From the NCBI RefSeq assembly GCF_003334815.1, contig NZ_QOWO01000015.1: a DNA stretch of 64,000 nucleotides. The stretch is one strand, 5' to 3'. Source of the stretch: Escherichia coli. Its GTDB lineage: Bacteria > Pseudomonadota > Gammaproteobacteria > Enterobacterales > Enterobacteriaceae. Positions 2,780-53,055 of this stretch are shown here, piece after piece. Under the pieces are notes generated by a model, which was given only the letters and a program-made list of their open reading frames with translations, ran no database searches and was not told the DNA's origin. Numbering within the stretch: position 1 is the first letter of the stretch; each line of letters starts with the position of its first letter. Both the position numbers and the translations under genes were made by a program.

Positions 2780-3439
2780 TTACAGGTTTATAAGAATATT
2801 CCCATCTGCATCAACAACGCCGCTGACTACCTGTCCCGATACCATGCGCACCCGCGCATTCTGTGCGACGGCTGCATTGTTCAGCGCCTGACCTTCTGCG
2901 TTGGCGCTAAACCCATCACCGCTGGCGATCACATTGACGCGTTGTCCCGCTTTTACCCGCCATGCCTGGCGAAACTGGGTTAACTGGATAGGTTGATCGG
3001 GTGATAGATCGCGCAGGCTAATGGCATCAACAAGTTGATTGATATCCAGCACCGTACGCGGTGGCAGGGTATCCAGCCGTCCGCGTTTCAGTTTGACATT
3101 GCCAGCTTCCAGCTTTCCTCCCCGCGCAATGGGCATCGCGGCAACCACATAATTTCCTGTGGCCTGTACATTAACCTGTAAATATCGTTTGTCGTTACCG
3201 CAGCGTGCCAACACATTCACATTGCCCCACAGGCGGGAATTATTGCTCATCGAAAGCAATGGCTGCTCGCATGGCGGTAGTAGATTGGGCGCTGTACGAA
3301 TAGAAACACGAACCTCATCACTTACCCCCGCGAGTTGGGCGCTAAAAAAGTTGTGCAATTGCGATGTGAGATTGCTCGCCGTACTTAACGGACTGAACAG
3401 TATCGCGATGATCGCCACGCTACGTTTTATTATCAGCAT
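2780..3439 (-). CDS. flgA: Flagellar P-ring assembly chaperone FlgA, 219 aa
   Basis: 219-aa ORF with N-terminal signal peptide MLIIKRSVAIIAILFSPLSTA; divergent from flgB. Confidence 0.9.
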   Translation of the reverse strand: MLIIKRSVAIIAILFSPLSTASNLTSQLHNFFSAQLAGVSDEVRVSIRTAPNLLPPCEQPLLSMSNNSRLWGNVNVLARCGNDKRYLQVNVQATGNYVVAAMPIARGGKLEAGNVKLKRGRLDTLPPRTVLDINQLVDAISLRDLSPDQPIQLTQFRQAWRVKAGQRVNVIASGDGFSANAEGQALNNAAVAQNARVRMVSGQVVSGVVDADGNILINL

Positions 3440-7159: not shown

Positions 7160-7262
<103 letters not shown>

Positions 7263-38271: not shown

Positions 38272-38390
38272 TCGCATCAGGTAACCTTGCCGGTACCTGA
38301 TGCGCTCCGAATTCTGTGGGTCGGATAAGGCGTCCACGCCGCATCCGACAGTCGAGCATCAATGCCTGATGCGCTTCTTATCAGGCCTAC
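38272..38390. repeat. BIME with three REP palindromic units downstream of ycfP
   Basis: CGCATCAGGTAACCTTGCCGGTACCTGATGCG, TCGGATAAGGCGTCCACGCCGCATCCGA and GCCTGATGCGCTTCTTATCAGGC. Confidence 0.8.
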
Positions 38391-38661: not shown

Positions 38662-39966
38662 TTGACTACGCCATTGAAAAAGATTGTGATTGTCGGCGGC
38701 GGTGCTGGTGGGCTGGAAATGGCAACACAGCTGGGGCATAAGCTGGGACGCAAGAAAAAAGCCAAAATTACGCTGGTCGATCGTAACCACAGCCACCTGT
38801 GGAAACCGCTGCTGCACGAAGTGGCGACTGGCTCGCTTGATGAAGGCGTCGATGCGTTGAGCTATCTGGCCCATGCGCGCAATCATGGTTTCCAGTTCCA
38901 GCTGGGTTCCGTCATTGATATTGATCGTGAAGCGAAAACAATCACTATTGCAGAACTGCGCGACGAGAAAGGTGAACTGCTGGTTCCGGAACGTAAAATC
39001 GCCTATGACACCCTGGTAATGGCGCTGGGTAGCACCTCTAACGATTTCAATACGCCAGGTGTCAAAGAGAACTGCATTTTCCTCGATAACCCGCACCAGG
39101 CGCGTCGCTTCCACCAGGAGATGCTGAATTTGTTCCTGAAATACTCCGCCAACCTGGGCGCGAATGGCAAAGTGAACATTGCGATTGTCGGCGGCGGCGC
39201 GACGGGTGTAGAACTCTCCGCTGAATTGCACAACGCGGTCAAGCAACTGCACAGCTACGGTTACAAAGGCCTGACCAACGAAGCCCTGAACGTAACGCTG
39301 GTAGAAGCGGGAGAACGTATTTTGCCTGCGTTACCGCCACGTATCTCTGCTGCGGCCCACAACGAGCTAACGAAACTTGGCGTTCGCGTGCTGACGCAAA
39401 CCATGGTCACCAGTGCTGATGAAGGCGGCCTGCACACTAAAGATGGCGAATATATTGAGGCTGATCTGATGGTATGGGCAGCCGGGATCAAAGCGCCAGA
39501 CTTCCTGAAAGATATCGGTGGTCTTGAAACTAACCGTATCAACCAGCTGGTGGTGGAACCGACGCTGCAAACCACCCGCGATCCAGACATTTACGCTATT
39601 GGCGACTGCGCGTCATGCCCGCGTCCGGAAGGGGGCTTTGTTCCGCCGCGTGCTCAGGCTGCACACCAGATGGCGACTTGCGCAATGAACAACATTCTGG
39701 CGCAGATGAACGGTAAGCCGCTGAAAAATTATCAGTATAAAGATCATGGTTCGCTGGTATCGCTGTCGAACTTCTCCACCGTCGGTAGCCTGATGGGTAA
39801 CCTGACGCGCGGCTCAATGATGATTGAAGGACGAATTGCGCGCTTTGTATATATCTCGCTATACCGAATGCATCAGATTGCGCTGCATGGTTACTTTAAA
39901 ACCGGATTAATGATGCTGGTGGGGAGTATTAACCGCGTTATCCGTCCGCGTTTGAAGTTGCATTAA
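38662..39966 (+). CDS. ndh: Type II NADH dehydrogenase NDH-2, 434 aa (TTG start)
   Basis: ORF-track frame 38635..39966; TTG 38662 gives [28 protein letters not shown] with Rossmann GxGxxG. Confidence 0.93.
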
Positions 39967-39980
39967 TCGACGTACACTGG

Positions 39981-40010
39981 CGGATGTGGCATAAACGCCT
40001 CATCCGCCCT
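39981..40010. repeat. REP-like hairpin downstream of ndh
   Basis: GGCGGATGTGGCATAAACGCCTCATCCGCC imperfect palindrome. Confidence 0.4.
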
Positions 40011-40175
40011 TGAGGAACAGCGCGATCGGCAGCCGCGTTGTATCAGGCATCCTTTCAGACTCCTCCGAATCCTTAAGTATTTCCAGCCATTCCCGCGCTT
40101 TTCATCTTCTGTCTGATAGCTGCTTTTCTCCTTCGCTTGCATGATTGGCATAACTGCAAAGAAGGAGGTGTTCCC

Positions 40176-40715
40176 GTGAATAAATCAATGTTGGCGGGTA
40201 TCGGGATTGGTGTCGCAGCTGCGCTGGGCGTAGCGGCAGTGGCCAGTCTGAACGTGTTTGAACGGGGCCCGCAATACGCTCAGGTTGTTTCTGCAACCCC
40301 AATCAAGGAAACGGTTAAAACACCGCGTCAGGAGTGTCGCAACGTCACAGTGACCCATCGTCGACCGGTGCAGGATGAAAATCGCATTACCGGGTCGGTG
40401 CTCGGCGCTGTTGCTGGCGGCGTGATAGGGCATCAGTTTGGTGGTGGTCGCGGTAAAGATGTCGCCACTGTTGTGGGGGCGCTGGGTGGTGGATATGCCG
40501 GTAACCAGATCCAGGGCTCTCTCCAGGAAAGCGATACTTACACGACTACGCAACAGCGTTGTAAAACGGTGTATGACAAGTCAGAAAAAATGCTCGGTTA
40601 TGATGTGACCTATAAGATTGGCGATCAGCAGGGCAAAATCCGCATGGACCGCGATCCGGGTACGCAGATCCCGCTAGATAGCAACGGGCAACTGATTTTG
40701 AATAACAAAGTATAA
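40176..40715 (+). CDS. ycfJ: Glycine-zipper membrane protein YcfJ, 179 aa (GTG start)
   Basis: ORF-track frame 40137..40715; GTG 40176 gives MNKSMLAGIGIGVAAALGVAAVASL; Gly-rich stretch GGVIGHQFGGGRGKDVATVVGALGGGYAG. Confidence 0.85.
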   Translation: MNKSMLAGIGIGVAAALGVAAVASLNVFERGPQYAQVVSATPIKETVKTPRQECRNVTVTHRRPVQDENRITGSVLGAVAGGVIGHQFGGGRGKDVATVVGALGGGYAGNQIQGSLQESDTYTTTQQRCKTVYDKSEKMLGYDVTYKIGDQQGKIRMDRDPGTQIPLDSNGQLILNNKV

Positions 40716-40746
40716 CAAGGCTGTACTCTGCAATTTGGCCCCTCAT

Positions 40747-40781
40747 TCGCTCAGGCTGAGGGGCTTTTTTTGCGACTTATT
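40747..40781 (+). terminator. ycfJ Rho-independent terminator
   Basis: GGCCCCTCA-TTCGCTCAGGC-TGAGGGGC stem followed by TTTTTTT. Confidence 0.8.
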
Positions 40782-41409
40782 TCACCAGTTCGGGCCATAA
40801 ACGCAAAGTCGTTCCGGCAATCTGCATCAGTTTTTCCAGCGATGCACCTTCGCGTGCGCTGATCGACATCCCCTGAATAATACAATTAAGGAATTCTGCC
40901 AGATGTGTCACGTCACAGTGGGGCGGGATTTCCCCGCGCGCTTGTCGTTGACATAAAAACTGCTGCAAAGTGCGCTCTTGCATCGCATGGCGTGATTTCA
41001 ACGTATTGGCGATATCTCCTGAATCTGGGGAGAGGGTGGTGCAGTTGTTGATCATGAAGCAGCCTGCCGGGGTGTCTTTGCTGGTAAAGCAGTTGGCGAT
41101 GGCAGCAAAATAGTCAGCCAGCGCAGACTCCACGCTTTTCTCTTCACAAAACAGCTGTGCTTCATGCTTAGCGGCAAAACGATCGATATAGCGGTCGAGA
41201 ACGGCACGAAATAACCCCTCTTTGTTGGTAAATTCCGCGTATAGCGTGGGCGCTTTGGCTCCGGTCGCTTCGACGAGGTCCGCAAGAGAAGTCGCTTCAT
41301 AACCGTGTTGCCAGAACAATTTCATGGCCTTATCAAGCGCGGCATCCCTGTCGAACACTTTTGGGCGGCCACGGCTTTTTTTTACACATTGTGTTGAGTC
41401 AGTTGCCAT
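40777..41409 (-). CDS. comR: TetR-family repressor ComR (YcfQ), 210 aa
   Basis: ORF-track frame 40777..41487; ATG at 41409 gives MATDSTQCVKKSRGRPKVFDRDAALDKAMKLFWQHGYEATSLADLVEATG, a TetR HTH. Confidence 0.9.
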   Translation of the reverse strand: MATDSTQCVKKSRGRPKVFDRDAALDKAMKLFWQHGYEATSLADLVEATGAKAPTLYAEFTNKEGLFRAVLDRYIDRFAAKHEAQLFCEEKSVESALADYFAAIANCFTSKDTPAGCFMINNCTTLSPDSGDIANTLKSRHAMQERTLQQFLCQRQARGEIPPHCDVTHLAEFLNCIIQGMSISAREGASLEKLMQIAGTTLRLWPELVK

Positions 41410-52096: not shown

Positions 52097-52936
52097 ATGC
52101 TGTCGCGTCGGGGTCATCGGTTAAGTCGTTTTCGTAAAAATAAACGCCGCCTGCGCGAGCGTTTGCGTCAGCGTATTTTTTTCAGAGATAAAGTGGTGCC
52201 GGAAGCAATGGAAAAACCAAGAGTACTCGTACTGACAGGGGCAGGAATTTCTGCGGAATCAGGTATTCGTACCTTTCGCGCCGCAGATGGCCTGTGGGAA
52301 GAACATCGGGTTGAAGATGTGGCAACGCCGGAAGGTTTCGATCGCGATCCTGAACTGGTGCAAGCGTTTTATAACGCCCGTCGTCGACAGCTGCAGCAGC
52401 CAGAAATTCAGCCTAACGCCGCGCATCTTGCGCTGGCTAAACTGCAAGACGCCCTCGGCGATCGCTTTTTGCTGGTGACGCAGAATATCGACAACCTGCA
52501 TGAACGCGCAGGTAATACCAATGTGATTCATATGCATGGGGAACTGCTGAAAGTGCGTTGTTCACAAAGTGGTCAGGTTCTCGACTGGACAGGAGACGTT
52601 ACCCCAGAAGATAAATGCCATTGTTGCCAGTTTCCGGCACCCTTGCGCCCGCACGTAGTGTGGTTTGGCGAAATGCCACTCGGCATGGATGAAATTTATA
52701 TGGCGTTGTCGATGGCCGATATTTTCATTGCCATTGGCACATCCGGGCATGTTTATCCGGCGGCTGGGTTTGTTCACGAAGCGAAACTGCATGGCGCGCA
52801 CACCGTGGAACTGAATCTTGAACCGAGTCAGGTTGGTAATGAATTTGCCGAGAAATATTACGGCCCGGCAAGCCAGGTGGTGCCTGAGTTTGTTGAAAAG
52901 TTGCTGAAGGGATTAAAAGCGGGAAGCATTGCCTGA
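52097..52936 (+). CDS. cobB: NAD-dependent protein deacylase CobB (sirtuin), long form 279 aa; internal ATG at 52208 gives the short form
   Basis: 279-aa ORF with Arg/Lys-rich N-terminal extension ([37 protein letters not shown]) preceding [24 protein letters not shown]. Confidence 0.9.
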
Positions 52937-53026
52937 TGCACTACGCTTATCAGGCCTGCAAGGGGACGCAATTAATTGAATTTGCGGGTTTTGTGGGCCG
53001 GATAAGGCGTTCGCGCCCCATCCGGC
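52931..53026. repeat. REP pair (BIME) between cobB and ycfZ
   Basis: GCCTGATGCACTACGCTTATCAGGC and GGGCCGGATAAGGCGTTCGCGCCCCATCCGGC. Confidence 0.8.
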
Positions 53027-53055
53027 ATAATACACGCGCACTTTTCCGGCCTCTT

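Follow-up and report, generated by a model that had tools for sequence, protein, structure and literature searches.

SlyB of Escherichia coli, an outer-membrane lipoprotein of the PhoPQ regulon (7OJF, 7OJG), assembles into oligomeric rings and forms ring-shaped lipid nanodomains, and YfgH has been proposed to belong to the same class, as a SlyB-like stabiliser (bioRxiv 10.64898/2025.12.22.696046). Here we analyze ycfJ, a gene of E. coli lying in a stretch of 64,000 nucleotides (nt) from contig NZ_QOWO01000015.1 of the RefSeq assembly GCF_003334815.1, which is called the window throughout. We propose, at about even confidence, that ycfJ is a single-gene unit of the Rcs regulon, encoding an exported protein that would act structurally on an envelope membrane through a SlyB-type glycine zipper. 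ycfJ is an annotated gene and not a new one, and earlier publications have described both its control by Rcs and its resemblance to UmoD. What is added here is an architecture made of a SlyB core plus a ribbon carrying an invariant pair of cysteines, the existence of zipper-less and lipoprotein variants, and the precise position of a conserved RcsB box and core promoter.

In E. coli, ycfJ is listed among the genes modulated by RcsB (PMC2731931). An inhibitor of LolCDE raised its expression 103- to 172-fold, second after osmB and alongside bdm and wza, and polymyxin and beta-lactams also raise it (PMC5105897). Colistin causes a dose-dependent increase in susceptible strains and none in strains carrying mcr-1 (PMC9241874), while at pH 4.4 both the mRNA and its ribosome footprints go up, with a log2 change of about 5 (PMC10746267). 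The gene is also upregulated in long-term stationary phase, with bdm, ymgG and yjbE, and the protein itself has been seen by mass spectrometry (PMC8144685). Altogether, ycfJ is induced under stress together with the Rcs regulon and in an Rcs-dependent manner (PMC5105897, PMC2731931); it is among the genes most strongly induced by envelope damage in E. coli, and already a marker of colistin susceptibility and Rcs activation. Its rise in the RseP E23Q strain (PMC8144685) raised the idea that YcfJ could be a substrate of RseP. This was not supported, as osmB and wzc are also increased in the table concerned, which points to Rcs activation as the cause.

Other relatives place the protein in a wider context. 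OsmB, YmgG, YfgH and YcfJ are all small exported glycine-zipper proteins, and for three of them the genes (osmB, ymgG and ycfJ) go up together in shared data sets (PMC5105897, PMC2731931), a pattern in keeping with zipper proteins dedicated to particular stresses. Two of the four, OsmB and YfgH, are lipoproteins, and a disulfide ribbon of the type described below for YcfJ has been reported for none of OsmB, YmgG and YfgH. Furthermore, the literature treats ycfJ as the counterpart of umoD (PMC8470065), which in Proteus mirabilis encodes an upregulator of flhDC, and in Serratia a ycfJ-like gene has been named umoD, its promoter serving as an Rcs reporter (PMC8470065, PMC9942566).

The gene and the parts of its product on which the argument depends are the following, with the supporting evidence given in brackets.

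40176 to 40715, plus strand: ycfJ coding sequence, GTG start, 179 amino acids (open reading frame list, translation, RefSeq, NCBIfam).
40188 to 40250, plus strand: residues 5-25, hydrophobic segment, signal peptide or signal anchor (sequence, conservation).
40275 to 40361, plus strand: residues 34-62, predicted long N-terminal beta strand, with the Cys54 codon at 40335-40337 (AlphaFold2 predicted local distance difference test, pLDDT, of 94-98 over residues 31-60).
40392 to 40514, plus strand: residues 73-113, glycine-zipper helical hairpin of the two-transmembrane (2TM) type (Pfam PF05433).
40536 to 40685, plus strand: residues 121-170, predicted C-terminal beta strands, with the Cys129 codon at 40560-40562 (AlphaFold2 pLDDT of 95-98; conservation).

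The identity of the gene is firm: the coordinates of the open reading frame are those of the RefSeq ycfJ coding sequence, and the YcfJ equivalog model of NCBIfam (NF008437, PRK11280) matches residues 1-178 with 325.9 bits, against a cutoff of 99. The 841-bp ycfJ region occurs in all 5426 of the 5426 complete E. coli genomes, with at least 95% identity in all but two. Among the fetched loci the GTG start is kept in most Enterobacterales and is replaced by ATG in Aeromonas, and M1 is invariant in 47 homologues of equal length. In a set of 1.84 billion cluster representatives, relatives of YcfJ form 124 clusters at E <1e-30 and 1486 at E <1e-10. Three AFDB50 matches labelled as eukaryotic, A0A7R9IUJ6 (Timema californicum), A0A914E4V7 (Acrobeloides nanus) and A0A0A2VV56 (Beauveria bassiana), are 73-99% identical to enterobacterial YcfJ and most likely represent bacterial contamination of those assemblies; one of them, A0A914E4V7 (1121 amino acids, named beta-N-acetylhexosaminidase), seems to be a predicted gene in which several genes from the nagZ-ycfJ region have been run together.

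The original prediction had seen in this product a glycine-rich stretch typical of glycine-zipper domains, followed by a soluble C-terminal part. The stretch, GSVLGAVAGGVIGHQFGGGRGKDVATVVGALGGGYAG, is indeed present in the 179-residue translation, as residues 73-109, and the domain is borne out by PF05433 (Rick_17kDa_Anti), which matches residues 73-113 over positions 2-43 of its 43 (E 2.5e-11), as it does in 86 of the 88 representatives of the family. PF13488 and PF13441, the Pfam families that correspond to OsmB, YmgG and YfgH, match more weakly, and the domain search, run as a check on that claim, returned no family with a characterised conflicting function. The zipper is the most conserved region of YcfJ (3.27 bits per column): across the 88 representatives, G73, G77, G81, G82, G85, G89, G91, G93, G101, G105 and G109 are invariant or nearly so, and a GxxxG/A spacing is repeated in two helices, modelled with low pLDDT as residues 71-84 and 94-118. 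PF05433 is also the defining model of the Rickettsia 17-kDa surface antigen family, with which YcfJ has only the zipper in common. The rickettsial 17-kDa antigens are lipoproteins.

Outside the zipper, the strictly invariant positions in the 88-sequence alignment are C54 and C129, in addition to two of the zipper glycines. A non-zipper domain does exist, as had been claimed, yet it is not simply C-terminal: in the alignment-based AlphaFold2 model two separate stretches, residues 34-62 and 121-170, make up one discontinuous beta domain, and the zipper that interrupts it sits at the tip of a ribbon of two strands. The model gives pLDDT >94 to the two long strands, 34-62 and 121-148, which are antiparallel, and to a pair of short ones that extend to residue 167, and Y142, V144, Y146, P161 and G162 are conserved in the C-terminal strands. 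The ribbon strands proper, 45-62 and 121-138, are polar and rich in Thr, Lys, Arg and Glu. In an antiparallel register that starts from the pair 62/121, residues 54 and 129 would face each other, and C54 and C129 would form a periplasmic disulfide stapling the ribbon. Moreover, natural variants without the zipper, which also lack the distal ribbon, are found in P0208 (108 amino acids), P0222 (123 amino acids, Shimwellia blattae) and P0186 (151 amino acids), and in P0208 the two invariant cysteines are joined by a 5-residue loop. These variants support a modular picture of YcfJ.

SlyB is the only solved relative found by sequence (7ojf; phmmer E 1e-7). Using a SlyB query checked to be identical to chain 7ojf_A, hhalign aligned the family profile with SlyB at 98.5% probability (E 3.8e-15), with an 18-residue insertion of YcfJ at 45-62. 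When residues 45-62 and 121-138 were removed, the profile became colinear with SlyB 40-151, that is, with nearly the whole mature protein, at 99.1% probability (E 1.1e-18). SlyB is also the top Foldseek match in the PDB (probability 0.94). Like YcfJ, it has a homologous 2TM zipper preceded by a beta strand, and each of the two, a small protein of the envelope, is induced by a system that responds to envelope stress, PhoPQ for SlyB and Rcs for YcfJ. To judge from these alignments, YcfJ looks like a SlyB core to which a disulfide ribbon has been added, amounting to about 2 x 18 extra residues with the two invariant cysteines. The oligomeric rings and lipid nanodomains belong to SlyB, and it is from sequence and a structural model that YcfJ is likened to it here.

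The same Foldseek search also returned weak secondary matches to the long beta hairpins of pore-forming toxins (lysenin and aerolysin), and helices that form channels are known to pack through glycine zippers. Such features would suit a glycine-zipper channel or permeabilising protein, whose hairpins would assemble into a pore under stress, and the co-induced ymgD and ymgG have been described as a putative toxin-antitoxin pair (PMC5105897). Nevertheless, we regard a pore as very improbable, given that the toxin matches have probabilities of at most 0.08 and template modelling scores near 0.1, that the polar ribbon is not amphipathic, that a 100-fold induction under stress in cells that survive argues against a toxin (PMC5105897), and that SlyB, the closest solved relative, is a stabiliser and not a pore.

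How the protein is held in the envelope depends on its N-terminus, for which a transmembrane or signal segment had been predicted. The hydrophobic segment is present, and can be read either as a signal peptide or as an anchor. Residues 4-25 form a run of 22 uncharged residues with neither a cysteine nor a lipobox, and the first cysteine of YcfJ is residue 54; therefore the protein is not a lipoprotein. Retention of the segment as an inner-membrane anchor, one of the two readings that the sequence allows, would fit the conserved G8xxxG12 pair (G8 in 72% and G12 in 81% of sequences) and the conservation of the segment, clearly higher than that of the linker behind it. Cleavage at A23/S24, the other one, would fit a good signal-peptidase I site (A21-V-A23 / S24, with G18 at -6), in which A23 is conserved in 66% of sequences, and the recurrence of small residues at A21/A23-type positions in homologues. 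Furthermore, 21 of the 88 relatives carry a lipobox-like motif at the equivalent place, three of them with Asp at +2, which favours cleavage, as cleavable signal peptides of the two kinds often replace each other. In many relatives, whether of the transmembrane or of the lipoprotein type, Pro/Ala-rich linkers of 70-140 residues separate the anchor from the beta head.

The regulatory side of the proposal was approached by comparing the 80 best loci from species-representative genomes, found by a profile search with a 16-sequence alignment: 67 belong to Enterobacterales and 13 to Aeromonas, Pseudomonas and others, and none of these 80 is from Morganellaceae. The elements upstream of ycfJ in the window are given below.

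40055 to 40068, plus strand: RcsB box TCAGACTCCTCCGA, 121 nt before the start codon (match to the pattern TNRGANNNNTCYNA).
40112 to 40122, plus strand: conserved block TCTGATAGCTG (TCTGATTGGC in most genera), putative -35 region (box-anchored comparison of 62 loci).
40140 to 40145, plus strand: putative -10 hexamer CATGAT (CAnAAT in Enterobacteriaceae), 17 bp after the -35 block (conserved block TTGCAAAATT).
40161 to 40168, plus strand: strong Shine-Dalgarno sequence GAAGGAGG, 7 nt before the GTG (sequence), with an AGGAGG core conserved across genera.

The pattern TNRGANNNNTCYNA occurs exactly once within 300 nt upstream of ycfJ in 62 of the 67 Enterobacterales loci, and the other 543 kb of these loci contain it only three times, an upstream enrichment of about 560-fold. 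Four of the five Enterobacterales loci without an exact box have, at the same place, a copy that is one position off, and none of the 13 upstream regions from Aeromonas, Pseudomonas and others contains the pattern. Within the 64-kb window taken by itself, its two matches are at chance level (1.9 expected); its position before ycfJ is, however, conserved. The variable positions of the box differ among genera while the specified ones hold, which speaks for selection acting on the motif rather than for a simple sharing of recent ancestry. The equivalent Salmonella ycfJ site, TCGGAGTTGTCCGA, appears in a table of RcsB binding sites which, as parsed, puts the box at -100 to -86 from the transcription start and the start itself 23 nt before the start codon (PMC7913699).

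The box is followed by two further conserved blocks. In the 62 loci, CT(G/T)AT(T/A)G lies at a fixed distance of 57-59 nt after the start of the box, and TTGCAAAATT or variants of it come 17-19 nt beyond. We infer from these distances that the blocks are the -35 (TTGnnn) and -10 (CAnAAT) elements of the promoter, with a predicted transcription start at about 40152-40153, which agrees with the Salmonella table as parsed. Outside Enterobacteriaceae, 110-206 nt separate the same module from the start codon, and the leader should accordingly be longer there.

Two other readings of this region were tried and abandoned. A class II RcsB box abutting the -35 was rejected, since 17-25 nt past the box the sequence shows no conservation and does not resemble a -10. 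A sigma-28 element in the -35 block (compare GCCGATAA) was set aside with 5 of 8 matches and no TAAAGTTT at the right spacing, and also because Rcs represses the flagellar cascade.

The same block begins with TCTGA (40112-40116), a match to the -10 consensus of sigma-E, and the main promoter might then be sigma-E-dependent, with this motif as its -10 and with the Rcs effects being indirect. Genomic systematic evolution of ligands by exponential enrichment (SELEX) with the RpoE holoenzyme did give a peak in the ndh-ycfJ spacer, close to TCTGA, at W3110 coordinate 1166772 and with an intensity of 4.0, which is one of the weaker entries in the portion of that list considered here (PMC5493296). 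On the other hand, no GGAACTT-like -35 is found 16 nt upstream of TCTGA, either in E. coli or as a conserved feature across genera, the Salmonella transcription start (PMC7913699, as parsed) fits the downstream, sigma-70-like hexamers, and direct binding of RcsB has been reported in that organism (PMC7913699). We therefore give hardly any credence to a sigma-E main promoter, and keep to a promoter under direct RcsB control with the hexamers proposed above.

Two side observations concern the same elements. In Enterobacteriaceae (loci L004-L035), a highly conserved and partly palindromic block (TTGC..ATTG...CAAT..GCAA), TTGCAAAATTGTTACCAATAGCAAC, occupies 40137-40160, just before the Shine-Dalgarno sequence. 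This block overlaps the putative -10 and the predicted start of transcription, and it might also serve as an operator or form a leader hairpin. The second exact match to the RcsB pattern in the window, TAAGAATATTCCCA (2791-2804, plus strand), falls within the 3' end of the flgA open reading frame, which occupies 2780-3439 on the minus strand; flgM starts at 2704, and the match precedes that start by about 90 nt. It is identical at 13 of 14 positions to what we take to be the canonical RcsAB box, and it may provide a direct Rcs input to the flagellar cascade below flhDC.

From these elements, the following sequence of events can be proposed. Damage to the outer membrane or the peptidoglycan activates the Rcs phosphorelay, for which polymyxin, a block in lipoprotein trafficking, beta-lactams and acid are known triggers. 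RcsB, bound to its conserved site at 40055-40068, some 90 bp before the predicted transcription start, would then drive strong transcription of ycfJ. YcfJ would then be exported by means of its N-terminal hydrophobic segment and would fold outside the cytoplasm into a small beta head with a polar ribbon, stapled by the C54-C129 disulfide and carrying the SlyB-type zipper hairpin at its tip. The zipper would insert into a membrane leaflet and associate laterally with other copies, so that YcfJ, not being an enzyme, would reinforce or organise the damaged membrane of the envelope, as has been shown for SlyB and proposed for YfgH. Placed beside these two proteins, YcfJ suggests that each envelope-stress system would have a glycine-zipper membrane protein of its own. 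In YcfJ there is an added part that is easily recognised, namely the disulfide ribbon, together with an anchor of another kind and an RcsB box whose position is known precisely. The proposal would supply one effector of a well-studied regulon, and would not overturn the current understanding of it.

Several observations weigh against this proposal. The zipper helices are modelled at low confidence (AlphaFold2 pLDDT of about 51), the C-terminal head taken alone has no significant similarity to SlyB (E 0.03), and YcfJ, unlike SlyB, has neither a lipobox nor a lipidated cysteine. In the model, moreover, the ribbon has the zipper at one end and the N-terminal segment at the other, at an estimated distance of about 9 nm (29 extended residues), and both could not easily be in the same membrane, as they are in SlyB. 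The phenotypes reported for ycfJ are related to biofilm only (PMC5105897), and neither oligomers, nor membrane insertion, nor an envelope-integrity phenotype of YcfJ were found in the literature consulted. Finally, the regulation itself would not be part of the core function. To our knowledge, Rcs is confined to Enterobacterales, and Pseudomonas and Aeromonas are without it; the presence of the family in these two genera makes Rcs control an order-specific overlay on an older protein.

In a bolder reading, YcfJ may represent a distinct architectural class of SlyB-like stabilisers, with an N-terminal helix in the inner membrane and the zipper held about 9 nm away on a disulfide-stapled ribbon. 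Upon Rcs induction, such a protein might form zipper-lined assemblies at the level of the inner membrane and peptidoglycan, or a tether between the inner and outer membranes, and it might report to IgaA as UmoD does in Proteus. The Pro/Ala linkers of 70-140 residues found in relatives fit a module that reaches away from the membrane in which it is anchored. We consider this class quite unlikely as formulated, and put it forward as a speculation.

The link with UmoD deserves separate consideration, since it leads to a different function. YcfJ and UmoD have homologous N-terminal hydrophobic segments and C-terminal beta heads, and the NCBIfam model of UmoD (NF041435) matches YcfJ with an E value of 6e-23, best over residues 121-177. 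One of the zipper-less variants, P0186, aligns with the UmoD model from end to end (89 bits), which suggests that UmoD itself has no canonical zipper. YcfJ could thus be a UmoD-like signalling accessory, whose periplasmic domain would act on IgaA (UmoB) or on another Rcs component, exerting feedback on the phosphorelay and on flhDC without any structural role. The naming and the reporter use of the Serratia gene would suit such a function, and so would the zipper-less variants, which retain the head and both cysteines and in which the head may function on its own. Work by Morgenstein and Rather in 2012 reportedly placed UmoD upstream of UmoB/IgaA and Rcs.

Nevertheless, the score of YcfJ against the UmoD model (81.1 bits) stays below the cutoff of 150, and relatives reach 48-89 bits with that model; the ten full-length ones compared were all assigned to the YcfJ equivalog and none to UmoD. 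Shorter by 21 positions, the UmoD model gives no alignment to the zipper, the most conserved part of YcfJ. Expression also separates the two, as Proteus umoD follows flagellar and swarming genes while ycfJ follows Rcs-activated genes; in an rffG mutant, a strain linked to the induction of stress responses, umoD falls to 0.12-fold, the opposite of what is seen for ycfJ. Moreover, the family is present in Pseudomonas and Aeromonas, which are not known to have Rcs or IgaA, and no motility or Rcs-output phenotype of ycfJ in E. coli was found in the 29 papers identified as mentioning the gene. To judge by these profile comparisons, UmoD is a relative of YcfJ and a functional lead rather than its family, and a signalling function is, in our view, unlikely, while a structural role of the zipper at the envelope membrane is the reading that we retain.

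The genomic context is in line with the autonomy of the gene. The neighbours and the intergenic structures are as follows.

38662 to 39966, plus strand: ndh, NADH-quinone dehydrogenase II, upstream neighbour (open reading frame list, RefSeq).
39978 to 40010, plus strand: diverged repetitive extragenic palindromic (REP) hairpin, 12 nt past the ndh stop (REP Y consensus, RNA fold).
40017 to 40041, plus strand: second hairpin, 8 bp, without a T-run, after the REP (RNA fold).
40737 to 40771, plus strand: intrinsic terminator, 9-bp stem GGCCCCUCA/UGAGGGGCU followed by seven U (RNA fold).
40777 to 41409, minus strand: comR, copper-responsive repressor of the TetR family, convergent downstream neighbour (open reading frame list, RefSeq).

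The order in the window is nagZ, ycfP, ndh, ycfJ, comR (minus strand), bhsA, ldtC (minus strand) and mfd (minus strand). The original prediction of a monocistron between ndh and a convergent comR agrees with the layout, in which ndh ends at 39966 on the plus strand and comR at 40777 on the minus strand. It also fits the anatomy of the locus, where, past the REP that follows ndh, ycfJ is preceded by a conserved promoter region and an RcsB box of its own, and where a terminator belonging to it stands between it and comR. The adjacency of ndh and ycfJ is kept in nearly all Enterobacterales loci, whereas comR lies next to ycfJ only in part of Enterobacteriaceae. In Aeromonas and Pseudomonas the family has other gene neighbours (in Pseudomonas, secDF upstream and a lipoprotein gene downstream), and these neighbourhoods are not conserved and gave no functional lead. 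It may be added that the annotation of E. coli ER1709 gives ndh as a pseudogene with a frameshift (locus L001, 2204-3507); the ndh of the window is intact.

Both flanking hairpins that had been noticed beside the gene, one REP-like and one a strong terminator, hold up on closer analysis. The terminator stem (40737-40765) is G+C-rich, with 9 bp of which six are G-C pairs, the last pair using the first U of the U7 run, and it encloses a loop of 11 nt including two weak inner pairs. Its fold reaches -23.6 kcal/mol (z = -3.0), and none of 200 shuffled sequences was as stable. In the minus-strand direction nothing but CAAAUU comes after the hairpin, which lacks a U-run there, and therefore it belongs to ycfJ and would be at best a weak terminator for comR. 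A scan for consensus terminators and promoters listed neither this terminator nor the ycfJ promoter, which were recovered by folding and by comparison among genera, respectively; the terminator was presumably missed because its 11-nt loop exceeds the scanner's limit of 3-8 nt.

As for the REP hairpin, intergenic and located after ndh, it agrees at 27 of 33 positions with what we take to be the REP Y consensus, and its changes are compensating, so that the stem is preserved. This stem (39979-40008) has z = -3.2 and is more stable than all of 200 shuffles. Against the naRNA4 model of Rfam the segment scores 30.2 bits, under the gathering score of 59.5. Four other copies in the window fit the presumed consensus with 1-5 mismatches; the REP elements of the window besides the one after ndh are found at 7226-7260, 18504-18538, 38316-38350, 52930-52959 and 52993-53027, one of which lies between ycfP and ndh.

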